Shown: positions 24,509-63,122 of the stretch, one piece after another
How positions within the stretch are numbered: the first letter of the stretch is position 1
Layout: each line of letters begins with the position of its first letter
DNA from: Patescibacteria group bacterium
GTDB taxonomy: Bacteria > Patescibacteriota > Patescibacteriia > Patescibacteriales > UBA12465
NCBI GenBank assembly: GCA_041651355.1
Contig: JBAZJK010000001.1
Location: 293,883 to 357,882, forward strand
Direction of reading: 5' to 3'
DNA: 64,000 nucleotides
Translations under genes and position numbers: made by a program
Notes under the pieces: model-generated
What the model was told of the DNA's origin: nothing
What the model saw: the letters and a program-made list of their open reading frames with translations, nothing else
The model's database searches: none

Positions 24509-24579
24509 TCGGGGATCGTCTAATGGTAGGACAGCAGGTTCTGGCCCTGCTAATCGGGGTTCAAATCCCTGTCCCCGAG
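24509..24579 (+). tRNA. tRNA-Gln (anticodon CTG)
   Basis: Folded by hand. Acceptor TCGGGGA/TCCCCGA (U1:A72 as in bacterial tRNA-Gln). D arm GTCT-AATGGTA-GGAC. Anticodon arm GCAGG-TTCTGGC-CCTGC. T arm CGGGG-TTCAAAT-CCCTG. Discriminator G. CCA not encoded. Confidence 0.85.
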
Positions 24580-24719
24580 CACCTATATAAAAACGAGCAG
24601 AAATGCCCGTTTTTATTATGTTTAATTAGTTCGAAAATAACATCACATTTTTTTATCTTTAGCAAATGCTCTGATTTTATTGACTTAAAAAAGTTCGAAT
24701 CCCTTTGCCTATTTTTTAT

Positions 24720-24764
24720 TTGACAGCCGTTTTGTTAAAAAGTATCATATCAATATAAATTGAT
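24720..24764 (+). promoter_or_regulatory. Promoter plus candidate ArsR operator
   Basis: TTGACA (24720-24725), 17-nt spacer, TATCAT (24743-24748). Immediately followed by the inverted repeat ATCAAT-ATAA-ATTGAT (24749-24764), 11 nt before the arsR start. Confidence 0.55.
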
Positions 24765-24775
24765 TATATAAATTT

Positions 24776-25090
24776 ATGAAAGCAAAATGTTGTACGAATA
24801 AAAAGCTAACCGAGGAATTTTCTAACCTCGCTAAGTTTCTACGGATTATCAGTGACGATAATCGTTTAAGAATTTTATGCTTACTCAAAAATGGGGAACG
24901 CTGTGTTTGCGAAATATATCCTAACCTTGATTTATCTCAAAATCTTGTTTCTAGTCATTTAAAAGTTATGCTTGATTTTGGCTTGCTTAAAATTAGACAA
25001 GAATGGAAGAAAAACTATTACTCTATTAATCCAATAATATTTAAAAAATATAATTTATCATTAACCAATTTCTTTAAAAACTATGAATAA
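24776..25090 (+). CDS. arsR: ArsR/SmtB-family transcriptional repressor
   Basis: 104 aa. Winged HTH. LSDDNRLRILCLL and CVCEI metal-site motif. Confidence 0.8.
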   Translation: MKAKCCTNKKLTEEFSNLAKFLRIISDDNRLRILCLLKNGERCVCEIYPNLDLSQNLVSSHLKVMLDFGLLKIRQEWKKNYYSINPIIFKKYNLSLTNFFKNYE

Positions 25091-25388
25091 GCAAATTACC
25101 TCGATTCAAGTTTTGGGCTCCGGTTGCCCAACTTGTAAAAAACTATTTGAATTAACTCAAAAAGCAGTTGTTGAATTAGAGTTAAAAACAGAAGTTGAAT
25201 ATATTACCGATATTCAAAAGATTATCGAGCTTGGTGTGATGTCATCTCCGGTTTTAACAATTAACGGTAAAGTGGCCTTAGTCGGCCAATTACCCGGTCT
25301 AGAAAAGATAAAAGAATTGCTTGCTTTAAACAGCCAACCAAAGATAGAAGAATCTATTAGTAGTTGTTCTTGTGGTGGTAAGTGCTAA
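25083..25388 (+). CDS. Thioredoxin-fold redox-active disulfide protein (small, CxxC)
   Basis: 101 aa. VLGSGCPTCKKL CxxC near the N-terminus. C-terminal CSCGGKC. Confidence 0.75.
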   Translation: MNKQITSIQVLGSGCPTCKKLFELTQKAVVELELKTEVEYITDIQKIIELGVMSSPVLTINGKVALVGQLPGLEKIKELLALNSQPKIEESISSCSCGGKC

Positions 25389-25396
25389 ATAAAAAT

Positions 25397-26377
25397 ATGG
25401 ACATTTTTTACCCTATACAATGGTTGGCGGATTTAGTAAGTTACAATTTATTAGGATTAGTTAAAGATTCTTATTTAGCTAATGCTGTTAATTTTTTTAT
25501 TTACGACACGATAAAAATTGGGCTTTTATTGTTAGTTATAAACTTGGTAATGGCAGCTGTAAATTATTATTTTCCCATGGAAAGGGCTAGGGATATTTTG
25601 ACTAAGAAGCGTTGGTTGGGTATGAATTATCTAATAGCGGCTTTACTTGGTATAGTCACCCCGTTTTGTTCTTGTTCTTCTATCCCGCTATTTATTGGCT
25701 TTATGGCTGCTAGAATACCGCTAGGCGTGACCTTTGCCTTTTTAATTAGCTCACCACTTATTAATGAATCTTCATTATATTTATTTCCAGCGATGTTCGG
25801 CATGAAAGTAACTATTCTTTATAATTTATTTGGGTTAGCGATTGCGGTTTTAGGCGGAATGCTTATACAAAAATTAAAATTAGAAAAATACGTAAAGCCC
25901 GAATTTTTGAATATTAAGTCACGAGCTAAAATGGAGACGACTATTAACGGGGATAAGCCTAAATTTAAAAAACTTCTCAAAGATTTTTGGCTAGATGGTT
26001 TTGCTTTAACTAAAAAAATATATCCTTACGTAATCTTAGGTGTTGGCGTTGGAGCTATTATTCATGGTTTTATTCCTAGTGATATAATTGGGCAATATTT
26101 GTCAGCCAAATCACTATGGACAGTTCCATTAGCAGTTATTTTTGCCGTTCCTCTGTATGCTAATTCTGTAACTGTTTTGCCAATAATGGAAGCCTTGGTT
26201 GGTAAGGGTGCCCCCCTAGGTACCGTTTTAGCTTTTATGACGGCAATCGTTACCTTGTCGCTGCCAGAGGCGATAATAATAAAAAAAGTGATGCGTTGGC
26301 CGCTTTTATTAATCTTTTTCGGTATCACAACGATTGGAATTATAATAATGGGTTATCTATTTAATATAATTTTATAA
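25397..26377 (+). CDS. COG0701-type permease, ArsP-like (PFCSCS motif)
   Basis: Polytopic. TPFCSCSSIPLF motif characteristic of this permease family. The ATG at 25397 is preferred over the GTG at 25382. Confidence 0.7.
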   Translation: MDIFYPIQWLADLVSYNLLGLVKDSYLANAVNFFIYDTIKIGLLLLVINLVMAAVNYYFPMERARDILTKKRWLGMNYLIAALLGIVTPFCSCSSIPLFIGFMAARIPLGVTFAFLISSPLINESSLYLFPAMFGMKVTILYNLFGLAIAVLGGMLIQKLKLEKYVKPEFLNIKSRAKMETTINGDKPKFKKLLKDFWLDGFALTKKIYPYVILGVGVGAIIHGFIPSDIIGQYLSAKSLWTVPLAVIFAVPLYANSVTVLPIMEALVGKGAPLGTVLAFMTAIVTLSLPEAIIIKKVMRWPLLLIFFGITTIGIIIMGYLFNIIL

Positions 26378-26386
26378 AATTAAATT

Positions 26387-26857
26387 ATGAAGAAAAATAT
26401 ATTTCTCTTTATTACTTTAGGGGCGCTCATCTTAACCCTAACAGGCTGTTCTGGCGATCAAAAAATAACCTATTTTAACGAAGATGGTAGTTCCAAAACT
26501 GTAGCAGTAAAAGACATTGTTAAGCCTGATAAAATAGAGGTGTATCTCTTTCATGCTACTCAGCGTTGCGCTACCTGTATTGCCATTGGCCGCCTAGCCG
26601 GCGAAACTGTTAACGAATATTTTCAGCCGGAATTACGAGACGGAAAAATAGAATTTAGAGAAATAAATATTGATCTGCCGGAAAACAAAGAATTAGCCGA
26701 AAAGTTTGGAGCCACCGGCTCAGCCCTGTATACAAATGTTATTGTTAAAGGGCAAGATGCTATTGCGCAGGATGTTAAGGTGTGGCGCTTAACTACAAAT
26801 GAAGAGGCTTTCAAGAGCTATTTAAAAGATAAACTTAATACCCAGTTAGGAAAATAA
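26387..26857 (+). CDS. Lipoprotein with thioredoxin-like CxxC domain (resembles the family annotated as ArsF-like)
   Basis: Lipobox LTLTGCSG. HATQRCATCIAIG CxxC. The family name is recalled from memory and not verified. Confidence 0.5.
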   Translation: MKKNIFLFITLGALILTLTGCSGDQKITYFNEDGSSKTVAVKDIVKPDKIEVYLFHATQRCATCIAIGRLAGETVNEYFQPELRDGKIEFREINIDLPENKELAEKFGATGSALYTNVIVKGQDAIAQDVKVWRLTTNEEAFKSYLKDKLNTQLGK

Positions 26858-26858
26858 T

Positions 26859-27593
26859 ATGGAAATTATAAATAGCCTAATAGATAATTATAATATACCA
26901 TTGCTTTCCGCCTTTCTTTTGGGAATATTAACTTCAATTAGCCCGTGCCCCTTAGCTACTAACATCACGGCGGTTGCCTTTATTTCCAAAGATTTTAAAA
27001 ATCCCGAACGCTCACTTTGGAATGGCTTGTATTATACTTTGGGACGAGCTTTAAGTTATATAATCATCGCCGCCTTAATTTATTTTGGCTTTTCAACTTT
27101 TAAAATAGCCGGAATTTTTCAAGGTTGGGGCGATAAAGTCTTGGGATTGGTAATGATTATTATCGGCCTGTTAATGTTTGGGTTTATAAAAATCAATCTC
27201 AATTTTAAAAGTGAGAAAATAGAAAAAGCTAAAGTTTGGCTGGCTAGACAGGGCTACCTTGGATCATTTCTATTGGGCATGCTCTTTGCATTAGCATTTT
27301 GTCCATATAGCGGTGCTTTATTTTTTGGGGCAGTTATTCCATTAATCATACATTCTCATTCCGGACTACTATTAAGCCCGATATTTGGCTTAGGAACTGG
27401 GTTGCCTGTTGTTATTTTTGCTTTTTTATTAGCTTATAGCACTCAAAAGATTGGCAAGACATTCTCTGTTATACAGAAAATTGAGAAAGTAATGCGGTAT
27501 TTAGTGGCAACTATTTTTATTTTAGTTGGTATATATTATTCTCAATTTTTGTTGTCATATCTTGTCAGTTTTTTTCAACAAATTGGCAAATAA
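26859..27593 (+). CDS. DsbD/CcdA-like transmembrane protein (resembles the family annotated as ArsG-type efflux permease)
   Basis: 244 aa, six TM segments. SISPCPLATN and FCPYSG Cys-Pro motifs, one in each half. Confidence 0.55.
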   Translation: MEIINSLIDNYNIPLLSAFLLGILTSISPCPLATNITAVAFISKDFKNPERSLWNGLYYTLGRALSYIIIAALIYFGFSTFKIAGIFQGWGDKVLGLVMIIIGLLMFGFIKINLNFKSEKIEKAKVWLARQGYLGSFLLGMLFALAFCPYSGALFFGAVIPLIIHSHSGLLLSPIFGLGTGLPVVIFAFLLAYSTQKIGKTFSVIQKIEKVMRYLVATIFILVGIYYSQFLLSYLVSFFQQIGK

Positions 27594-27635
27594 AGTCCGA
27601 AAGCAGTCCCTCCAAGCGAGTAATCATATATAAAA

Positions 27636-27666
27636 ATAGGCTAATTTGTGTCTATTTTTGTTTTTA
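27636..27666 (+). terminator. Terminator after the ars-like cluster
   Basis: ATAGGC / GTCTAT stem (one G-T pair), 8-nt loop, T run. Confidence 0.5.
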
Positions 27667-27669
27667 ATA

Positions 27670-27698
27670 TTGACAAATTATTAATTATATTACATAAT
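27670..27698 (+). promoter_or_regulatory. Sigma70-like promoter
   Basis: TTGACA, 17-nt spacer, CATAAT. Lies 28 nt upstream of the GTG at 27726. Confidence 0.55.
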
Positions 27699-27725
27699 TA
27701 TTGCAGAATTTTAAAACCCTAGACC

Positions 27726-28301
27726 GTGAAAATTAAAAATGTTATTTTTTTCGGCTTATTATGGGGAGTAATTTATTTCGGAACCAACAATATAATGCTG
27801 TTCACCGCCCGTGAGTTTCCATTATTTCCATTTGAAAGTAAGATTTCGATGAATGAATATTGGATGATTCCTTACGTTTCTTGGATCATTTATATTGTCG
27901 CTTTTTGTTTATCCATTAAAAAAGAGGCAAGAAAATTTATTTTGTTGGCAACACTTTTAGTGGTTATTCATGCTTTGATATTTATTTTTTACCCAGTTGA
28001 GTTTCCTAGGCATTACGATTTCAATTCGCTTTGCGCGGTAAACAAATTCTTATTAAGTTGCGATAACCCGCGGAATTGCTTTCCCAGCTTGCACGTATCT
28101 TTAATTTTCCTAACATTATTATCCGCTCGATTGCTTGGTATATCAAAAATAATGCGCTACCTCTTTGCGATTTGGGGTGCAGTTATCATGATTTCCGTAA
28201 TCTTTGTGAAACAGCATTACTTGATTGATGTACTGGTCGGAATAATAATGACTACCATTTATTTTTATTTATTTAAAAATAGATTTCGAGAGAGCTTTTA
28301 A
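27726..28301 (+). CDS. PAP2-superfamily membrane phosphatase/transferase (PAP2_C-like)
   Basis: 191 aa, polytopic. FPSLHV and KQHYLIDVLVG motifs. Confidence 0.55.
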   Translation: MKIKNVIFFGLLWGVIYFGTNNIMLFTAREFPLFPFESKISMNEYWMIPYVSWIIYIVAFCLSIKKEARKFILLATLLVVIHALIFIFYPVEFPRHYDFNSLCAVNKFLLSCDNPRNCFPSLHVSLIFLTLLSARLLGISKIMRYLFAIWGAVIMISVIFVKQHYLIDVLVGIIMTTIYFYLFKNRFRESF

Positions 28302-28322
28302 TTGTTGGAGCTCTCTTTTTTA
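28290..28322 (+). terminator. Terminator overlapping the PAP2 gene stop
   Basis: GAGAGCT / AGCTCTC stem, 12-nt loop containing the stop codon, T6 run. Confidence 0.6.
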
Positions 28323-28331
28323 AAATAAAAC

Positions 28332-28400
28332 AGTTCTAATTATATCCCAATTCCTGAGTGAGTAGACAAAATACCGCTTTTCGTGGTATTTTTTGTATAT
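28332..28400 (+). repeat. Intergenic hairpin-promoter module, copy A
   Basis: AGTTCTAAT...TAGACAAAATACCGCTTTTCGTGGTATTTTTTGTATAT. Hairpin ATACCGC-TTTTC-GTGGTAT. Sits directly upstream of the ATG at 28399. Confidence 0.8.
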
Positions 28401-28866
28401 GAATAATTTTTTGGAAAAAATTTTACACATCTTAAGCAAATTAAACATCGCGCCAGTTATATATGGATCTTTTGGCGCATCTCTTTATCTTGGCAATTTC
28501 AAAGAATTTGGAGACATCGATATACTCATCGAGGATAATTATATCTCTAATGACTGGGAAGAGTTTAAGAAAACACTTGAAGTAGACGGCTTTACCTTAA
28601 TTAATGAAAAGGAACATGAATTTGCATTTAACGGTAAGCAAGTCGGATTTGCTGGGAAAAGTATATTAATCAGGGATGGGATAATTAAAGATTATAAAGA
28701 GCTGGTCCGATATAAAGATAAGAATGCCCATACCTTAACCCCAGCCGATTTTTTAAGGGCTTACGAGTTCAGCTTCAAAGATGGATATCGTGTTAATAAT
28801 CGAGCCAAAAACGATCATGACATTATCCTAAAGTTGAAAGATTACATAGCGGCCAATGGTAAGTAG
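28399..28866 (+). CDS. Minimal nucleotidyltransferase-fold protein (antibiotic-NTase-like)
   Basis: YGSFGASLYLGNFKEFGDIDILI, i.e. the GS...DxD NTase signature. 155 aa from the ATG at 28399. Confidence 0.6.
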   Translation: MNNFLEKILHILSKLNIAPVIYGSFGASLYLGNFKEFGDIDILIEDNYISNDWEEFKKTLEVDGFTLINEKEHEFAFNGKQVGFAGKSILIRDGIIKDYKELVRYKDKNAHTLTPADFLRAYEFSFKDGYRVNNRAKNDHDIILKLKDYIAANGK

Positions 28867-28925
28867 TTCCAATTGCATACTAAGCTCTGAGCAGTTTAAA
28901 ATAGCCCTATTTTAGTAGGTATAAT
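28865..28925 (+). repeat. Intergenic module, diverged copy B
   Basis: Begins (T)AGTTCCAAT overlapping the stop codon, as in copy C. Ends in TTTAAA...CCTA-TTTTAG-TAGG hairpin...TATAAT. Confidence 0.55.
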
Positions 28926-28979
28926 TGAAGTTTAAGGTAAATAGTGCCAATATTAAAATAAATAAATCAAAATATAATT

Positions 28980-29612
28980 ATGACCATTTGGGATAATATT
29001 TATAAAAAATATAAAAAGGATGGGCAAGAATACGCTACTTTACAGCCAGGTTTAATTCCGGAGTTTTTAAATTTTATTCAGAAACGGGATTTTAAGATAA
29101 AACAAGTTTTGGATATCGGCTGTGGTAATGGGAAATATTTAATTTTTTTAAAAAGTTTAGGCTTTAAGACCGATGGGATTGATTCTAGCCCGACCGCAGT
29201 GGAAATGACTAAAGAGATTTTAAAAGATGACTCAAATATATTATTAGCTGATATATATAAATATGATTTGCCTAAAGAGCAATATGATCTGGTAATTTCC
29301 ATAGCTGCTATTCATCATGGTTTGAAAGCACAGGTCAATCGAGCCATAAAACAGATTTATCCGGCTCTTTTGCCAGGAGGAAGTTTTTTTGTTACCTTAC
29401 CAGATAATGAAGGCAGTTCACATTGGACTAGCATGGTCGAACATAAGGAAATAGAACCAGGGGTCAGAGCGCCTCTGCATGGCCCCGAGGCAGGTTTGCC
29501 CCACAGCTCTTTTACTAAGGAAGAGATAAAAGAAATGTTTTCTGATTTTGCTAAGGTTGATATGCAACTCTTGGCTGATAGAGGTAGATGGATTATAACT
29601 GGTACAAAATAG
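28980..29612 (+). CDS. Class I SAM-dependent methyltransferase
   Basis: VLDIGCGNGKY motif I. 210 aa. Confidence 0.8.
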   Translation: MTIWDNIYKKYKKDGQEYATLQPGLIPEFLNFIQKRDFKIKQVLDIGCGNGKYLIFLKSLGFKTDGIDSSPTAVEMTKEILKDDSNILLADIYKYDLPKEQYDLVISIAAIHHGLKAQVNRAIKQIYPALLPGGSFFVTLPDNEGSSHWTSMVEHKEIEPGVRAPLHGPEAGLPHSSFTKEEIKEMFSDFAKVDMQLLADRGRWIITGTK

Positions 29613-29682
29613 TTCCAATCTTCTCCCAAACTCCGAACTAGATAGACAAAATACCACTTCTTGTGGTATTTTTGTTATATAT
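29611..29682 (+). repeat. Intergenic hairpin-promoter module, copy C
   Basis: AGTTCCAAT...TAGACAAAATACCACTTCTTGTGGTATTTTTGTTATATA. Perfect hairpin ATACCAC-TTCTT-GTGGTAT. Confidence 0.8.
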
Positions 29683-29697
29683 TTAAAATATAAACTT

Positions 29698-30090
29698 ATG
29701 AATAAAGTTACACACTTTGAATTTCCCTGGGATGATAAGGACAGAGCCAAATCTTTTTATCAAAATGTTTTTGGCTGGAAGCCTTTCGAATGGGAACAAT
29801 TTTCTTATACTAGTTGGCAGACCGGTCCAGTCGATGAAAAGATGCAGCCCACTGAGTTTGGATTTATCAATGGTGGTTCCAGTAAGCGCGATCCGCAGAT
29901 GCCTTATCCAATGTTTTACGTCGATGTGGAGGATATTGACGCGACCCTTGAAAAAATTATCGCTCAGGGAGGCGCGATCGTGAGAGGGAAGACCCCTCTT
30001 GGAGAAAATGGCAGCATGGGTTTCTTGGCTTGGTTTAAAGATTCCGAAGGTAATATTCTAGGTTTGTCCCAATATAAACAATCGGCCTGA
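29698..30090 (+). CDS. VOC-family protein (glyoxalase / bleomycin-resistance fold)
   Basis: 130 aa. VTHFEFPWDDKDRAKSFYQNVFGW N-terminus and FKDSEGNILGL C-terminal motif. Confidence 0.7.
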   Translation: MNKVTHFEFPWDDKDRAKSFYQNVFGWKPFEWEQFSYTSWQTGPVDEKMQPTEFGFINGGSSKRDPQMPYPMFYVDVEDIDATLEKIIAQGGAIVRGKTPLGENGSMGFLAWFKDSEGNILGLSQYKQSA

Positions 30091-48373: not shown

Positions 48374-48712
48374 ATGCCAGATAAAAGTTTAGTAACTCCC
48401 TTTGCCCATCAGGTCTATAGCGCTTGCCGTAAGGTGCCCAAGGGCCGGGTTGTGACCTATAAAGGTTTGGCTATCCTTTTGGGCAAGCCCGGGGCTAGTC
48501 GAGCGGTCGGCAATGCTTTGCATCGGAATCCTTATGCGCCCGAGGTTCCTTGCCATCGAGTAATCAGAAGTAATGGCCAGGTTGGCGGCTTTGCTGGAGG
48601 AAAGGCGCGGAAGCTTAGGCTGTTAAGGGAAGAGGGGATTGTTATTAAAGATGGCCGGATAGATCTGAAGAAGTATCTGTATAATTTCAAGCCGACAAAA
48701 AATCTCCCGTAA
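48374..48712 (+). CDS. ogt: Methylated-DNA-protein-cysteine methyltransferase (C-terminal domain only)
   Basis: 112 aa. Active-site PCHRVI. NPYAPEVPCHRV context. Confidence 0.85.
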   Translation: MPDKSLVTPFAHQVYSACRKVPKGRVVTYKGLAILLGKPGASRAVGNALHRNPYAPEVPCHRVIRSNGQVGGFAGGKARKLRLLREEGIVIKDGRIDLKKYLYNFKPTKNLP

Positions 48713-48825
48713 GGGGAGATTCTTGTAACTTCGCCAAGCGGCTTTTTGATTGAACTTTGACTATTATATCTTAGCAAATAATATGATAATAGTCAATCTG
48801 TATTATATAAATTAAAGCGCGCGTG

Positions 48826-48892
48826 TGGACCCGCGGGGAGTTGAACCCCGGAGTTGGAATGTCAAAGTCCAATTTGCCACCTGGCCGGGCCC
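48826..48892 (-). ncRNA. Aberrant tRNA-like gene (67 nt, G3:U70, reduced D arm, 9-nt anticodon-position loop)
   Basis: Hand fold. Acceptor GGGCCCG/CGGGTCC, extendable to 9 bp. GCC-AGGT-GGC mini D arm. TTGGA-CTTTGACAT-TCCAA. 3-nt variable region. T arm CGGGG-TTCAACT-CCCCG. Discriminator A. Extended -10 TGTTAAAAT lies just upstream. Confidence 0.45.
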
Positions 48893-48964
48893 ACGCTAAA
48901 TTATTTTAACATAAGCCACTTAACCGGGGATTAAACGAAGGCTAAAATAAACATAAGAATACCT

Positions 48965-50142: not shown

Positions 50143-50170
50143 AAAAAACCCTCATTTTTTAGAGGGTTTA
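50143..50170. terminator. Bidirectional terminator
   Basis: AACCCTC / GAGGGTT stem, flanked by an A run and a T run. Confidence 0.6.
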
Positions 50171-50641
50171 AAGCAGTCGAGGCATAATGTCTGGACCAAT
50201 ACGTGATTCCTTAGTCTTGATGATTATGAAATCTGGAGATAAACCAGCTTCTTGGAAGGCTTTGGCTTCAGTCAGGGTCAGACAAACAGCGATGAAATTA
50301 AATCCCAGCTCTTTAGCGGCTTGGTAATCAGCTAGATTAGAGCTGAGTAAGACGACTTTCCCTGGGAAATAAGCTTGCTGGTCGATTAAGGCAATTTTTT
50401 GCAAGTGGGTGGCAAATTCTCCCAAAGCTTCACTTGCCTCCTTTTTTTCTTTAAGCCAGAAGAATAGATTGAGGTTAAGACGTAGCTTATGGGCCTTGCT
50501 TTCTATCTGGCCAGTCTGGCCATAGAGTCCGATGACATAGCCCGCCTGGCGCAATTGGAAGAAATCCGAATCGCTCAGCGGCTGATAGGCCGAATTTTGG
50601 AAAAGTCGGCTATCCACGGAAAAGATTAGGATTCTGTCCAT
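50168..50641 (-). CDS. Hypothetical protein (possibly HAD-like fold)
   Basis: 157-aa ORF. Only weak resemblance to HAD hydrolases. Confidence 0.5.
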   Translation of the reverse strand: MDRILIFSVDSRLFQNSAYQPLSDSDFFQLRQAGYVIGLYGQTGQIESKAHKLRLNLNLFFWLKEKKEASEALGEFATHLQKIALIDQQAYFPGKVVLLSSNLADYQAAKELGFNFIAVCLTLTEAKAFQEAGLSPDFIIIKTKESRIGPDIMPRLL

Positions 50642-50707
50642 TTTTAAGGTTTTTTTGAAAGAAAGTTTATTAGAATATTATTAAAATCATAGCAAAAATC
50701 GGAGGTA

Positions 50708-50735
50708 TTGACAATATTTTAGGAAATGATAAGAT
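50708..50735 (+). promoter_or_regulatory. Promoter of the rplJ-rplL operon
   Basis: TTGACA, 16-nt spacer, TAAGAT. Confidence 0.55.
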
Positions 50736-50753
50736 ATAGGCAATCAAATACTA

Positions 50754-50851
50754 CCACAGACAGCCAGCTTTCCAGGTTTCCTGGATATAAGACTTGCCGA
50801 GGTAAAACCTTTCTAGGCTTTTATTGTCGTCTGTGGAAACACAGATTTTTT
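50754..50851 (+). promoter_or_regulatory. Ribosomal protein L10 leader (attenuator type)
   Basis: CCACAGAC (50754-50761) can pair with GTCTGTGG (50829-50836). That segment alternatively forms the terminator TCTGTG-GAAA-CACAGA plus T6 (50830-50851). Position upstream of rplJ matches the known L10-leader arrangement. Confidence 0.6.
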
Positions 50852-50874
50852 ATTTATAATCAATTCAAAATAAT

Positions 50875-58527: not shown

Positions 58528-58602
58528 TCCCGGGTAGCGCAGCGGTAGCGCAGTTGGCTGTTAACCAATTGGTCGTCGGTTCGAATCCGACCCCGGGAGC
58601 CA
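58528..58602 (+). tRNA. tRNA-Asn (anticodon GTT), CCA encoded
   Basis: Hand fold. TCCCGGG / CCCGGGA acceptor. GCGC-AGCGGTA-GCGC D arm. GTTGG-CTGTTAA-CCAAT anticodon arm. GTCGG-TTCGAAT-CCGAC T arm. G73. CCA. Confidence 0.9.
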
Positions 58603-60195
58603 ACGTAGATTAAGCGAGGTTAAAGCCTCGCTTTTTCTTTTATTTTCGCCAAAATATGTCGGTTCGAACCTAGCGATTTCAGCGTTAAATTTTTCAACGT
58701 TATTTCTGAGTGGAATAAGCCAATTATGATAAGAAATGCTAATGTTTTTGCCAATTATTCTTTGGTTCGAACCTAACTTCTTAATGATGTTATTTCGTGT
58801 TTCTTTGTCTCCTTTATCAAACTCCTTTCGAGCTTGAGCACAGAAAATAAAATTTTCTTTGGTAAGCTCTATTAGTTCTGCCTTGCTTGGTTTTGTTTTA
58901 ATTTCATTTTGGCTTAAAGCTTCAATCTCAGCTTTTAATTTAGTCCGTTCGACTAAATAATCAGCATCATCAAGCATCTTTTTCATTCTCATGCTATTAA
59001 GCTCAGATAACTGATCTTCTAAATCTTTAACCTTCTTTTCTCTATCCAGTTTAACCGGCTTTTCTGTTTCAAATTCCTCTTTCATATTTTTCTCTAAATA
59101 ATCTAAGGCTAAGCTTAAAAACTGGGGATGCATTTCCAGTTTTTTAAGGTCGCTTTTAACTTGTTTTTCTAATTCTTCTTCTTGAATAGAACCTTCTCGA
59201 CAGCCAGTTTCTTTTCGTTTATGCGTACAATGGTAATAGTGATAAGTTTTAACTTCATTAGCTTCTAAAATATATTTTCTTTTGCGTTCAGCGGTAATAG
59301 CACAACCACAAAAACCACAGGTAAAAGCGCCAGAATACATAAAGTCTAACTTTTTAACATTTCTTTTATTACCCCTTAAGCCTAATAACTCTTGAATCCG
59401 ATTATAATCTTCAAGACTAATTATCGGCTTATGTTTGCCCGGGCTTTCTTTACCGTTATAAGTGATTATGCCGCAATAAAATGAGCTAGTTAACATTTTA
59501 TACCAGGTGCTTCTAGATAATGAATTGCCCCCAGTTTTAGCTTTTGCCCTAGTCTTATAACCCCAATCATTATTTAGCTTATTTAATACCTCTTGAGCAG
59601 TATAATTACCAGTTAAAAAGAGCTTAAAAGCCTCTTTAAGAAGCGGTGCACGCTTCTTGTCGGTAATTAGTGTCCGTTGACCTTTCTCGAGCCTCATATC
59701 GTTTAAATAGCCCTCAGGAGCTTGTCCTGGAAGCCAACCGAGAGAGACTTTCTTCTCTAAACCACGCTTTACATCCTTGCCTAATTTAGAAGAGAAATAT
59801 TGAGACTGACTGAGAGCTAATTGGAGCATCATTATGCCTTCCGGGGAATTATCAAAATTATATGATCCGAATTTTAAATCTTTAATAATCCCGGTACGGA
59901 CTAAATAGGTAATAGTTGAAGCATCTATTTCATTTCTTGATAATCTATCAGGATGCCAGGCAATAATGCCGTGCGCTTCACCTTTCCTTATTCTTTTTAT
60001 CATCTCAGCGAAAACCGGCCGATTGTATGGCGAAAAAGCGCTATGCTTTTCTTCCATAACTGCAACAATTTCTAAGCCGCTAAAAAACTCTTTAACTTTA
60101 TCCATTTGACTTTCAATGGATAAAGCCTGTCTTTCATCGCCTTCAGTTGATTTGCGGACATAGGCAAAATATTTAATTGGATTTTCGCTCGTCAT
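58561..60195 (-). CDS. Large serine recombinase (integrase)
   Basis: YFAYVRKSTEGDERQALSIESQ catalytic-Ser region. Recombinase domain (GWLPGQAPEGY). Zinc ribbon CGFCGCAI...YHCTHKRKETGC. Coiled coil. ATG at 60195 (the track uses a TTG at 60240). The last 14 codons are antisense to tRNA-Asn. Confidence 0.85.
   Translation of the reverse strand: MTSENPIKYFAYVRKSTEGDERQALSIESQMDKVKEFFSGLEIVAVMEEKHSAFSPYNRPVFAEMIKRIRKGEAHGIIAWHPDRLSRNEIDASTITYLVRTGIIKDLKFGSYNFDNSPEGIMMLQLALSQSQYFSSKLGKDVKRGLEKKVSLGWLPGQAPEGYLNDMRLEKGQRTLITDKKRAPLLKEAFKLFLTGNYTAQEVLNKLNNDWGYKTRAKAKTGGNSLSRSTWYKMLTSSFYCGIITYNGKESPGKHKPIISLEDYNRIQELLGLRGNKRNVKKLDFMYSGAFTCGFCGCAITAERKRKYILEANEVKTYHYYHCTHKRKETGCREGSIQEEELEKQVKSDLKKLEMHPQFLSLALDYLEKNMKEEFETEKPVKLDREKKVKDLEDQLSELNSMRMKKMLDDADYLVERTKLKAEIEALSQNEIKTKPSKAELIELTKENFIFCAQARKEFDKGDKETRNNIIKKLGSNQRIIGKNISISYHNWLIPLRNNVEKFNAEIARFEPTYFGENKRKSEALTSLNLRWLPGSDSNRRPIG
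58612..58640 (+). terminator. Terminator after tRNA-Asn
   Basis: AAGCGAGG-TTAAAG-CCTCGCTT, then a T run. Confidence 0.75.
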
Positions 60196-60231
60196 ATATG
60201 TATTTTTAGATAACAAAAAGGGACGGTCCTG

Positions 60232-60337
60232 AGCATCCAACTAAATATTGCCAAAAGCAATACTCGTCAGCAGAACCATCCCTTTTTGGGGGCGAGTATA
60301 AAAAAAGCTTTTGGGCTGTGTTATTTAGTTGGATGCT
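60232..60337. repeat. Nested inverted-repeat structure upstream of the recombinase gene
   Basis: 16-bp perfect inverted repeat AGCATCCAACTAAATA / TATTTAGTTGGATGCT (60232-60247, 60322-60337). It encloses the inner repeat CGAGTAT / ATACTCG and the small hairpins TTGC-CAAAA-GCAA and CCC-TTTTTGG-GGG. Confidence 0.7.
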
Positions 60338-60580: not shown

Positions 60581-61345
60581 TTAGAAACCGTATAAACGAT
60601 ATTGAATTTTTCCTAACCAATCAGAACGGTATGATTTTTCAAATAACGGCGGAATATTGCCAATAGCATTTGTGATAAATTCTTTTACTTCTTTAAAGAC
60701 GGTAATAATAATTGGTTGCTCAAGGTTTTTTGAGGCTAATATTTTTCTCATTCCAAAATAGCGAATATCAAACAAATTTTTACTGACATATTTTGAAACG
60801 TAAAGCCCTAAATGATTAACGTGTTTAATTCTATTTATTTTTATAAATCCATTTTGCCAAATAGCTTTTAATTCATCAGAAGCCATTTCAAAATTAACTA
60901 ATAAATGATAATGAACGGCTCCGCCATTTGGTTTTGGTCTACCATAGTAATCGTTATCAGATTGAAATTCAGGAATAGCGATATATTTTAAATTTGGCCT
61001 TTTTCTCTTTAGTCTTTTAATAAACTTCTTAAATATCGGATTAGCTTCAACTAGACTGGGAACATCAGAATCAAAGGTTAGGGTGATAAATACTTTTAAA
61101 TCAGGATTAGCGTTTATTAAACGCACAATTCTTGATCTAGTCCGGCGCAAGGAAAAATCTCTCATTACCTCAACTTGAAAAGCCTTGTTAGCGCACTCTT
61201 TAATCTGCTTCATTATTTCTTCTTTTGTGCGACGTTTGGCGGCTTTTTTCTTCCTCTTCTTTTGGCCAACATGAATAGGCGTCTCGTATTGATAGAGCTC
61301 CACTTTCTTCCCGGATATTATTAACTTGTTCTGATAGGTGGTCAT
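60581..61345 (-). CDS. HUH rolling-circle replication initiator (phage/plasmid Rep, two-Tyr type)
   Basis: Motif 1 FITLTF, motif 2 HYHLLV (HUH), motif 3 YVSKYVSK (YxxKY). ATG at 61345. An alternative TTG lies at 61375. Confidence 0.8.
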   Translation of the reverse strand: MTTYQNKLIISGKKVELYQYETPIHVGQKKRKKKAAKRRTKEEIMKQIKECANKAFQVEVMRDFSLRRTRSRIVRLINANPDLKVFITLTFDSDVPSLVEANPIFKKFIKRLKRKRPNLKYIAIPEFQSDNDYYGRPKPNGGAVHYHLLVNFEMASDELKAIWQNGFIKINRIKHVNHLGLYVSKYVSKNLFDIRYFGMRKILASKNLEQPIIITVFKEVKEFITNAIGNIPPLFEKSYRSDWLGKIQYRLYGF

Positions 61346-61541
61346 CTTTGAGGAGGAAATACAATTCTTCAACAACAGAAGTGTATTCTTCTTGATATGA
61401 GTTAAGTTTTCGAACTAAAAGCTCGAAATCGGTGGTTGAATCGGTTTTTATTCTTCTAGTAATTCCAAATCTTAAAGTTTTAATTCTTTCTCGAAGCCAA
61501 ATAATGTAATCAAATTCTCTTTTAATGTTTTTATATATCAT
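61200..61541 (-). CDS. Hypothetical 113-aa ORF overlapping the Rep 5' end in another frame
   Basis: The N-terminal ~70 aa look protein-like (MIYKNIKREFDYIIWLRERIKTLRF...). The C-terminal part overlaps Rep by about 146 nt. Confidence 0.35.
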   Translation of the reverse strand: MIYKNIKREFDYIIWLRERIKTLRFGITRRIKTDSTTDFELLVRKLNSYQEEYTSVVEELYFLLKDDHLSEQVNNIREESGALSIRDAYSCWPKEEEEKSRQTSHKRRNNEAD

Positions 61542-62270: not shown

Positions 62271-63122
62271 CTATCTTACAGTTAATTCTTTTTGTTTCAA
62301 GAATTCTCCTTCACTTAATGCACCTCTATAACCACCTTTATTTTCTCGTCCGCAATCAGAACAAATGCTAACAGGTTTCCAATAATGTTTTTTAGGTCGT
62401 AGCTTAATGTCATAACAACTGTCGTAAATTCCCGTTGGCTTAATAATTAAAACTTGCTTACATTTTGGACAATTATTTAAATTGAAGTCATGCCTTTCGT
62501 GGCACTTCTCACAAAATTTATGCTCAAGCTCTAATTTATATTCATTCCATTTAGTAAAAAGCAGTTTTGATTTAAGAAAAAATCTAAGCTCTGATAACCA
62601 AGAAAAAAAACCATTATCTTTTGGCTCCGGTTCTTCTTTTAGCATTTGGGTTCTATCAATAGAGCGTTCCCGGAAAATAATAACTCCTGGAATAAAGGTT
62701 AGGATGCGAAAACAATCAGTCCATTCATCGATAACAATACGAGCGCTTTTGGCGACTAACGTAATATTTTGGGTCGTGCCATAAACATCAACGTGGTGGT
62801 GGCGATGTTGTTGAAAAAATCTTCTGATAGCACCGCTTTCGTTTTCCCAGTTTCTAGGATCGAGCGGCTCGGCTATTTCATCGCAAACTACAATACAATT
62901 TCTGACATCAACAATGTCTTCCATTTCTTGGTAATAATGAAGATTATTTTTATCAGTATCCCATTCACCTAAAACATCAAAGCGTTTCCAGTTAAGCCAT
63001 AAGTTAGAATATACTTGATAACCGGCGACAAGATAAGGATAAACAAAGGTCGCCATTATTAATGATTTACCGCTGCCAGGAAGCCCGGTAATTAATTTGA
63101 ATTTTGAACCATCTAAAGCCAT
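62271..63122 (-). CDS. Zot/pI-like P-loop morphogenesis ATPase with C-terminal zinc-ribbon motifs
   Basis: Walker A ITGLPGSGKS, Walker B IVVCDEIAE. C-terminal CEKCHERHDFNLNNCPKC and CSDCG. No hydrophobic TM segment seen. Confidence 0.7.
   Translation of the reverse strand: MALDGSKFKLITGLPGSGKSLIMATFVYPYLVAGYQVYSNLWLNWKRFDVLGEWDTDKNNLHYYQEMEDIVDVRNCIVVCDEIAEPLDPRNWENESGAIRRFFQQHRHHHVDVYGTTQNITLVAKSARIVIDEWTDCFRILTFIPGVIIFRERSIDRTQMLKEEPEPKDNGFFSWLSELRFFLKSKLLFTKWNEYKLELEHKFCEKCHERHDFNLNNCPKCKQVLIIKPTGIYDSCYDIKLRPKKHYWKPVSICSDCGRENKGGYRGALSEGEFLKQKELTVR

Follow-up and report, generated by a model that had tools for sequence, protein, structure and literature searches.

A tRNA-shaped RNA and a predicted antisense small RNA encoded side by side in the atl–uvrC gap of a Patescibacteria chromosome

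What is a 67-nt sequence with the outline of a tRNA doing between two genes that mostly leave it no room? The sequence lies at 48892..48826, on the minus strand, of a 64,000-nt stretch of chromosome from a Patescibacteria group bacterium (the window, by which we mean the whole of this stretch), inside the 252-bp gap between atl and uvrC and opposite in strand to both. Where atl is present in relatives that lack the element, it abuts or overlaps uvrC, with no gap in most of them. A sequence-only reading of the window had described an aberrant tRNA-like gene with a G3:U70 pair and a T loop of the transfer-messenger RNA (tmRNA) type, and proposed a tRNA pseudogene or attachment-site remnant, a regulatory or decoy tRNA-like RNA, or an alanine-accepting tRNA with unusual decoding. 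The comparative analysis supports the second proposal and sharpens it: the locus probably holds two tandem minus-strand small RNA genes working as a pair, one for an alanine-type tRNA mimic that resembles the tRNA-like domain (TLD) of tmRNA, the other for an antisense small RNA (sRNA). Nothing else at the locus is as informative as the adjacent antisense gene, which the sequence-only reading had not seen. What the comparison shows is the sequence and fold with its conservation, covariation inside the cloverleaf as well as from one gene to the other, and the geometry of promoters and terminator.

The tRNA-shaped RNA and its conservation

Read 5′ to 3′, the element runs through an acceptor strand (GGGCCCG), a D mini-arm (GCC-AGGT-GGC, GCCAGGTGGC), an AAA linker, a hairpin at the anticodon position (TTGGA-CTTTGACAT-TCCAA), a CTC variable region, a T arm (CGGGG-TTCAACT-CCCCG), the second acceptor strand (CGGGTCC) and a discriminator A73. 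The acceptor helix includes G3:U70 and grows to 9 bp once GT upstream pairs with AC downstream. The sequence, the extendable acceptor, A73, the T arm and the D mini-arm are all present as the sequence-only reading had described them. RNAfold returns the cloverleaf as both the minimum free energy (MFE) structure and the centroid (−28.9 kcal/mol); the fold energy alone is unexceptional (z = −1.63, with 17 of 200 shuffles equally stable). A strict search of both strands of ≈0.56 Mb for a 7-bp acceptor, a 5-bp T stem and a TTCRA loop returned only the two true tRNAs of the window, the element with its identical copies and one spurious match. Since almost nothing else came up, the shape of the element is no common accident.

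Like a tRNA, the RNA stacks a 7-bp acceptor on a 5-bp T stem that carries a loop of the TTCRANN form; the copy in one relative, L084, deviates with TTTAAGT and an A·C mismatch. Other features of tRNA geometry are missing, namely nucleotides 8–9, a D loop of 7–11 nt and a purine at position 37. The acceptor runs directly into a D stem of 3 bp, the D loop has 4–6 nt across copies and keeps its GG, a 3-nt linker follows the D arm, the variable region has 3–4 nt, and the whole RNA measures 67–70 nt. The hairpin at the anticodon position had been read as a 9-nt loop with a central TGA. The triplet is indeed found at the anticodon position, but the relatives and ARAGORN at relaxed settings give a 7-nt loop on a stem of six positions, whose closing pair is a C·U mismatch in the window and in L110 and A–U in L083 and L084.

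UvrC served as the anchor for every comparative locus, and this comparison places the chromosome in Patescibacteria, near Falkowbacteria. Besides the window, the element is carried at the same position by L083 and L084 (the latter identical to L106), the two closest by UvrC with 81–82% identity, and by L110 (73%). No copy was found by BLAST, motif, structure or covariance-model searches in 80 species-representative GTDB Falkowbacteria uvrC loci and six further contigs (L108, L111–L113, L115 and L116). When JGI metagenomes were scanned for the 22-mer GTGGGCCCGGCCAGGYGGCRAA, the matches listed were just L106 and one chance match; in IMG/VR, again among the matches listed, the 5′ motif gave 21 chance matches in high-GC phages and the sRNA motif none. 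Among the matches listed for the 157-aa protein encoded nearby (described below) were just the three contigs already known, and among those listed for the UvrC of L110 there were no closer relatives.

Conservation and covariation, named as a check in the sequence-only reading, are both found: the element occurs in four lineages, and six of its pairs have changed on both sides. We counted pairs over the four sequences (window, L083, L084 and L110), with 500 shuffles and with controls in which the pairing partner was slid by 1–3 columns. In the cloverleaf, 95.7% of cells are paired, against 30–52% in the slid controls; the six doubly changed pairs comprise four of the anticodon-like stem and one each of the D and T stems. 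On four of five measures at most 2 of 500 shuffles reached the observed value; the fifth, which counts further pair types, did not stand out (238 of 500 shuffles). The extended acceptor helix behaves differently, with all nine of its pairs invariant, G3·U70 included, and A73 invariant as well. That the acceptor stays fixed where the other stems vary suggests that the acceptor end is read by sequence-specific recognition.

The triplet at the anticodon position is UGA in the window, CGG in L083, UAA in L084 and UGA in L110, while U33, C37 and A38 are invariant in all four copies. Each loop fits the U-turn motif YUNR (UUUG, CUCG, CUUA and UUUG, respectively). The T loop reads TTCAAGT, TTTAAGT (L084) and TTCGAAC (L110) in the relatives, and because of this variation TTCAACT alone is no specific tmRNA signal. 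The likeness to tmRNA that had been proposed from it holds for the overall architecture, not for the T-loop sequence that was cited. The L110 copy has a D arm of GCU-GAAGGU-AGC and encodes ACCA at its 3′ end. The extended −10 noticed earlier near the 5′ end (TGTTAAAAT) is there, 10 nt before G1, and an element of the form TGnTAnnnT stands 9–10 nt upstream of G1 in all four lineages. It would serve as a promoter (P1), with a predicted transcription start 2–4 nt before G1.

The predicted neighbouring sRNA gene and its proposed pairing with the mimic

Downstream of the tRNA-like gene by 7–30 nt, on the same strand and behind a variable spacer without conserved structure, stands a second predicted promoter, P2. 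Its geometry is identical in five of five lineages, these being the four carriers and L109: a −35 of the form TTGAnn, a 17-nt spacer, TGC, a −10 hexamer and then exactly 6 nt to GUC. Both hexamers are near consensus in L083, where the −10 is TATAAT. A strong predicted intrinsic terminator with a U run follows ≈65 nt beyond P2. The predicted sRNA start is exactly the first nucleotide that pairs with the tRNA-like RNA; in the free sRNA the 5′ 19 nt, including the pairing seed, are predicted to be unpaired, and the 3′ motif GAAGUUACAAGAAU is invariant. Reading the sRNA sequence revealed no stop codon between the 5′ seed and the 3′ end and no credible small open reading frame (ORF). Further targets of the seed or of the conserved 3′ motif within the window occur at chance counts.

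By complementarity, the first 13–15 nt of the sRNA match a stretch of the tRNA-like RNA made up of the linker, the 5′ strand of the anticodon-like stem and loop positions 32–37. These two segments, Z and X, were also returned independently by a repeat finder as an inverted repeat (I1, 13 nt, 92% complementary). In the resulting 15-pair helix between the genes, 93.3% of cells are paired and eight pairs have changed on both sides; none of 500 shuffles reached the observed values, and slid controls fell to 21–48% paired. A second helix would join positions 48742–48733 of the sRNA to the D hairpin, and in L110 this anti-D segment changes along with the D arm. The G·U pairs of the inter-gene helix would be A·C mismatches on the other strand. 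Such G·U pairs, in the inter-gene helix and in the cloverleaf, fix the element on the minus strand together with the scores of R1, a covariance model of the element: in a search of 614 kb it found only the known copies, at 87–95 bits on the minus strand against 17–21 bits on the plus strand.

RNAduplex energies of the cognate pairs are −36.4, −30.4, −27.1 (L084) and −35.1 kcal/mol, compared with −14.3 to −27.7 kcal/mol for non-cognate pairs and about −16 to −18 kcal/mol for shuffled sRNAs (standard deviation ≈3.3). The cognate duplex is the most stable in seven of eight row and column comparisons, that is, in all four sRNA columns and in three of four tRNA-like rows; the exception is the L084 row, a near-tie (−27.1 with its own sRNA, −27.7 with that of the window). 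After the costs of unfolding, the net gain from dimerization is −17.1, −10.1, 0.0 (L084) and −17.5 kcal/mol. Complementarity specific to the cognate partner and kept by compensatory change across lineages, as in a trans-acting antisense RNA, is what these comparisons show.

A fifth lineage, L109 (2387–2452, minus strand), has the sRNA with its promoter and terminator; the tRNA-like gene is absent at the locus. The partner of this sRNA may lie elsewhere in the genome or may have been lost. The L109 seed, GUCGAGAUCCAAUUC, has diverged again, and its anti-D segment would still fit a D arm of the window type.

Around P2, the segment 48757–48796 forms a perfect 11-bp palindrome, TTGACTATTAT and ATAATAGTCAA separated by 18 nt, with mirror-image promoter-like sites on the two strands; the plus-strand site (TTGACT, 16 nt, TAATAT) is directed toward uvrC. 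The arm over the P2 −35, which we call Y, belongs to an inverted repeat (I2, 11 nt, 100% complementary) that is weaker in L083, L084 and L110. It may sequester Z in read-through transcripts, or it may be mere promoter sequence.

How the pair may work, and what else it could be

We hypothesize the following course of events. Gene 1 would yield a tRNA-shaped RNA with an alanine-type acceptor/T minihelix, a 3-bp D mini-arm and a stem with a 7-nt U-turn loop, which is the architecture of the tRNA-like domain of tmRNA with nothing else attached. An acceptor/T minihelix with G3·U70 and A73 is a substrate of RNase P, of the CCA-adding enzyme and of AlaRS, and we infer that both genes are expressed and that the mimic is matured by RNase P, receives CCA, is charged by AlaRS and has a role in the cell. 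Gene 2 would yield a terminator-ended sRNA with an unstructured antisense 5′ end. YUNR U-turn loops are classical nucleation sites for antisense RNAs; here the 5′ end of the sRNA would nucleate on the loop, zip up ≈13–15 bp and then 6–10 bp more, and by invading the stem and the D arm it would unfold the lower half of the mimic. The mimic would in this way be switched off or marked for cleavage, and the amount of folded mimic would be controlled. The reverse, in which the mimic sponges the sRNA, is equally possible, and we leave the direction open because the 3′ motif of the sRNA is invariant and the sRNA survives alone in L109. The most likely role, by analogy with TLD-only tmRNAs, would be to engage or titrate proteins that handle tRNA or tmRNA, such as SmpB.

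Several points weigh against a mimic controlled by its antisense neighbour. The two genes occur together in four lineages only, with the sRNA alone in one more, and all of these are metagenomic. The tmRNA motifs UCGAC and GGAC are lacking, and every Rfam score is below gathering. The L084 copy looks partly decayed, with an A·C in the T stem, C56 changed to U, weaker −10 elements and no net gain from dimerization. The sRNA may have another, primary function, since L109 keeps it without a mimic at the locus. Finally, no terminator stands between the genes, so that transcription could read through both and give one RNA that forms the same helix in cis.

This last point is the core of the main alternative, which we hold to be rather unlikely: one RNA of ≈200 nt would run from P1 to the terminator and fold back on itself through the X:Z and D:anti-D helices. 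Its tRNA-like part would be a 5′ processing or stabilising module, and cleavages of the RNase P and RNase Z type would free the sRNA. Some tRNA-like elements do release RNAs in this manner, as in MALAT1/mascRNA and in tRNA-linked spacer sRNAs. Full-length folds use the long-range helix and are unusually stable (−66.7 and −63.8 kcal/mol, z = −4.7 and −3.7, a level that none of 200 shuffles reached), and the Y:Z palindrome could set the order of folding. However, the spacer between the genes has no conserved structure at any of its lengths, and P2 is conserved in five of five lineages with near-consensus hexamers in L083. It is the exact spacing of P2 to the first paired nucleotide, together with L109, which retains P2 and the sRNA after losing the tRNA-like part, that leads us to favour two transcripts. 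A functionless tRNA or tmRNA pseudogene or integration-site remnant, one of the candidates offered earlier, is very unlikely. The element is found in very few genomes at a variable intergenic spot, its L084 copy carries damaging changes, and its acceptor/T half is weakly similar to attachment-type tRNA fragments (an 88% match of 34 nt within an archaeal virus integrase gene, E = 0.02); yet the helices are kept by compensation, in three stems of the cloverleaf and at eight pairs between the genes, so a decaying pseudogene does not account for it. The acceptor is also invariant, the promoters are conserved, at a fixed distance in four lineages in the case of P1, no integrase was seen among the Pfam-annotated genes around it, a repeat finder gave no direct repeats bounding the module, which also led us to reject a mobile insertion, and blastn against phage and plasmid collections gave short insignificant matches and no similar DNA. 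It is just as improbable that the RNAs matter as cis-antisense control of atl–uvrC, through complementarity to a read-through mRNA or through transcription interference. The module does split an operon that is contiguous in relatives, and its terminator is shared with atl, but neither fact explains the tRNA shape, the invariant G3·U70 acceptor or the same-strand covariation, and the module persists in L084, where atl is absent.

The remaining alternatives concern what kind of tRNA relative the mimic is. At default settings ARAGORN calls only tRNA-Gln and tRNA-Asn in the window and leaves the element uncalled, and Rfam at gathering thresholds likewise returns only tRNA-Gln (24509) and tRNA-Asn (58528), with no tmRNA; the tRNA model RF00005 does not match the element at gathering or at E values up to 10. 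With −ps80 or −ps90 (a threshold of 80–90%), ARAGORN calls the copies tRNA-Ser(tga), tRNA-Pro(cgg) and tRNA-Leu(taa), the window copy being tRNA-Ser(tga). These calls, the canonical acceptor and T arm, U33 and the 7-nt loop are what speaks for a decoding tRNA, whether an alanine acceptor that reads UCA or other codons, as had been offered earlier, or a frameshift or quadruplet decoder with an enlarged loop. We regard this as extremely unlikely, because the triplet swaps between Ser, Pro and Leu anticodons among relatives whose UvrC is ≈81% identical; C37 in all copies, the missing nucleotides 8–9, the 3-bp D stem and the use of the loop as the pairing site of the sRNA point the same way. A true tmRNA homologue cut down to its TLD, a mini-tmRNA without coding sequence (CDS) regulated by the sRNA, is rather unlikely. 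It would be charged with alanine and bound by SmpB and EF-Tu, and would either rescue stalled ribosomes without a tag or inhibit canonical trans-translation. The alanine identity set of tmRNA, G3·U70 with A73, is invariant in four of four lineages, CCA is encoded in L110, and the layout is that of the 80-nt TLD-only gene of mycobacteriophage DS6A; precedents exist in CDS-less tmRNAs (PMC11915505) and in the inhibition of tmRNA by a TLD-only molecule (PMC4131195). The tmRNA model RF00023 aligns to the L110 copy end to end, with 308 central positions deleted (20–28.6 bits, E = 1.8e-6 to 3.5e-8), and to the T arm only of the window copy (11.1 bits), all below its gathering threshold of 47 bits. 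In the alignment to the RF00023 consensus, GG is present, UCGAC and the 3′ GGAC are absent and a 3-bp D stem forms; R1 gives the DS6A TLD only 16.7 bits, and the distribution is narrow. No part of an mRNA-like domain (resume codon, tag ORF, stop or pseudoknots) is found in the 67–70-nt RNA. Judged by its sequence, the element is built like a TLD, but because of the sub-gathering scores, the missing UCGAC and GGAC, the D stem and the low R1 score on DS6A it is not assigned to the tmRNA family, and membership is not established.

Two candidates were tried and rejected. The sRNA as the mRNA-like piece of a split tmRNA does not fit the lack of an in-frame stop or conservation at the level of nucleotides rather than codons, and the pairing would destroy the D region. 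A type I toxin–antitoxin pair lacks a credible small ORF.

A bolder form of the paired reading, which we hold to be unlikely, would make the locus an RNA-only switch on ribosome rescue: an alanine-accepting, TLD-only mini-tmRNA held in check by the adjacent antisense sRNA. The free mimic would titrate SmpB, AlaRS or EF-Tu, and trans-translation would be blocked or bypassed. If this were true, the locus would in effect pair a toxin and an antitoxin that are both RNA, or form an RNA rheostat, and would act on translation quality control in an ultra-small bacterium.

The working end of tmRNA is itself a small tRNA mimic of alanine identity; catalogues also list a few mini forms that carry no tag, and to our knowledge little has been learned of what these do. 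A mimic with a co-evolving antisense partner implies that the folded, free molecule has an activity that the cell needs to dose, and the locus is therefore a handle on what tag-less mini forms do. We know of almost no regulatory RNAs characterised in Patescibacteria; if both RNAs are expressed, they would be a compact, testable example of RNA–RNA regulation in this phylum and a naturally occurring instance in which strand invasion at the anticodon-like loop switches a tRNA-shaped RNA. For annotation, the consequence is that default tRNA and tmRNA finders miss the element, and that relaxed settings would mislabel it as tRNA-Ser, tRNA-Pro or tRNA-Leu.

Genomic setting and closest known systems

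The features of the locus are collected in the table. Within the window the gene order is uvrB, a CYTH-domain gene, uvrA, atl, the gap with the element, a short uvrC, a lineage-specific ORF of 157 aa, rplJ and rplL.

Table. Coordinates of the two predicted RNA genes, their parts and the flanking genes in the window.
Feature	Position	Strand	Basis or remark
tRNA-shaped RNA, 67 nt	48826..48892	−	sequence and MFE cloverleaf
Acceptor 5′ strand	48892–48886	−	
Acceptor 3′ strand	48833–48827	−	
A73	48826	−	
D mini-hairpin	48885–48876	−	
AAA linker	48875–48873	−	
Anticodon-like stem	48872–48867 with 48859–48854	−	
7-nt loop	48866–48860	−	
CTC	48853–48851	−	
T arm	48850–48834	−	
P1, extended −10 element TGTTAAAAT	48903..48911	−	10 nt upstream of G1; putative promoter
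Target segment X	48861..48873	−	linker, 5′ strand of anticodon-like stem, loop positions 32–37 (canonical tRNA numbering)
P2, sRNA promoter (TTGACT, 17 nt, TGC-TAAGAT)	48768..48796	−	promoter scan; transcription predicted
Segment Y, palindrome arm over P2 −35	48786..48796	−	complementary to 48757–48767, beside/overlapping the start of Z
Partner sRNA, 65 nt	48697..48761	−	predicted; 5′ end set by P2, 3′ end by terminator
sRNA 5′ seed Z	48761–48749	−	
Anti-D segment	48742–48733	−	
sRNA conserved single-stranded motif and terminator 5′ arm GAAGTTACAAGAATCTCCC	48732–48714	−	
sRNA terminator hairpin	48724–48698	−	overlaps last codons of atl
Terminator U run	48702–48697	−	
Alkyltransferase-like (ATL) DNA-binding protein gene (atl)	48374..48712	+	Pfam PF01035
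Short UvrC gene, 391 aa	48965..50140	+	Pfam GIY-YIG and UvrC RNase H domain

The 157-aa ORF (50168–50641, minus strand) is convergent with uvrC and has no Pfam family. Among the matches listed from 5.8 billion proteins it has two homologues, carried by the L083 and L084 contigs; an ORF of equal size occupies the matching position in L109 and was missed by the protein search. Upstream of uvrC, different unannotated sequences are found in L111 (1260–1640), L112 (1–110), L113 (320–520) and L084 (2250–2715), all on the minus strand and each behind a strong promoter of the TTGACAAA type directed away from uvrC; the one in L113 has repeated GTCGTGAGAC hairpins and a terminator. None of the four has a match in Rfam. 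The gap upstream of uvrC appears to be a hotspot for lineage-specific small RNA genes. Upstream of rplJ, five Falkowbacteria loci (L109–L113, e.g., L110 2922–3056) score 34–40 bits against the L10 leader family (RF00557, gathering 44), and the counterpart in the window would by position be at ≈50700–50870; the threshold probably misses a real L10 leader in this phylum.

Two further regions of the window begin at tRNA genes. A large serine recombinase gene (58561–60240, minus strand) extends with its end over the 3′ end of tRNA-Asn(GTT) (58528–58602); beyond this gene lie a Rep ORF2/G2P-like gene (60581–61375) and a Zot-like ATPase gene (62271–63122), at a GC content of 0.36–0.37 compared with ≈0.45. 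The segment 58528–64000 looks like an inovirus-like (filamentous) prophage at a tRNA, running past the end of the window. Directly after tRNA-Gln(CTG) (24509–24580), GC is also low (0.34–0.36) from 24600 to 30000, where the genes encode an ArsP-type permease, a DsbD_2 protein, a PAP2 phosphatase and a SAM methyltransferase and no integrase was seen; this is possibly an old island at a tRNA.

Among known systems, the nearest are the TLD-only tmRNAs. The 2025 tmRNA database reports CDS-less tmRNA genes of ≈65 bp in Mallomonadaceae plastids and tag-less mitochondrial forms, and holds three "Standard NoCDS" entries from Patescibacteria, a group with ≈0.78 standard tmRNA genes per genome (PMC11915505). 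An earlier paper notes strong inhibition of tmRNA by a molecule consisting of the TLD alone, with titration of SmpB as a possible cause (PMC4131195). We located the TLD-only gene of DS6A at JN698994 28478–28557 (80 nt); it has the same layout as the element and keeps GGUCGAC. With the DS6A, plastid and mitochondrial forms the element shares a 7-bp acceptor, G3·U70, A73 (and CCA in L110), a T arm stacked on the acceptor, GG in the D region, a plain stem at the place of the anticodon arm or P2, the lack of a tag ORF and a length of 65–80 nt. It differs from them in the absence of UCGAC and GGAC, its 3-bp D stem, its 7-nt U-turn loop and its sub-gathering score, and also in being chromosomal in a free bacterial lineage and having a dedicated, co-evolving antisense sRNA. 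Neither PMC11915505 nor PMC4131195 mentions an antisense partner for TLD-only forms, and in the literature searched we found neither a report of such a pairing nor a description of a tRNA-like RNA in Patescibacteria.

The best Rfam family at permissive E values is mascRNA-menRNA (RF01684; 28.6 and 26.7 bits, E ≈ 1e-3, gathering 42.5). Both run from the acceptor straight into a D mini-arm of 3 bp, the loop of which is short (4 nt in the window, 6 nt in L110), and continue with a small hairpin at the centre and a T arm. However, mascRNA is eukaryotic and cut from the 3′ end of a long non-coding RNA, whereas the element is bacterial with a putative promoter directly upstream, and the match is one of convergent shape, not homology. 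With bacterial tRNAs (RF00005), tRNA-Ala above all, the element has in common the acceptor/T minihelix, G3·U70, A73, U33 and the 7-nt loop; it departs from them in lacking positions 8–9, in its 3-bp D stem with a 4–6-nt loop, in C37, in a variable region of 3–4 nt and in an anticodon that is not conserved.

On the antisense side, CopA/CopT, RNAI/RNAII and Sok/hok are pairs whose interaction starts at a U-turn (YUNR) loop, and the tRNA 3′ETS-leuZ spacer with RyhB/RybB, an sRNA–sponge pair, sets a precedent for a tRNA-related partner of sRNAs. As in pairs of the CopA/CopT type, a YUNR loop is here offered to a single-stranded partner and the pairing extends into the stem. In contrast to them, the genes lie in tandem on the same strand instead of giving overlapping transcripts from opposite strands, the partner that offers the loop is a complete tRNA mimic, and no mRNA target or protein toxin is evident. 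The locus would combine two known themes, mini-tmRNA-like mimics and antisense RNA control.

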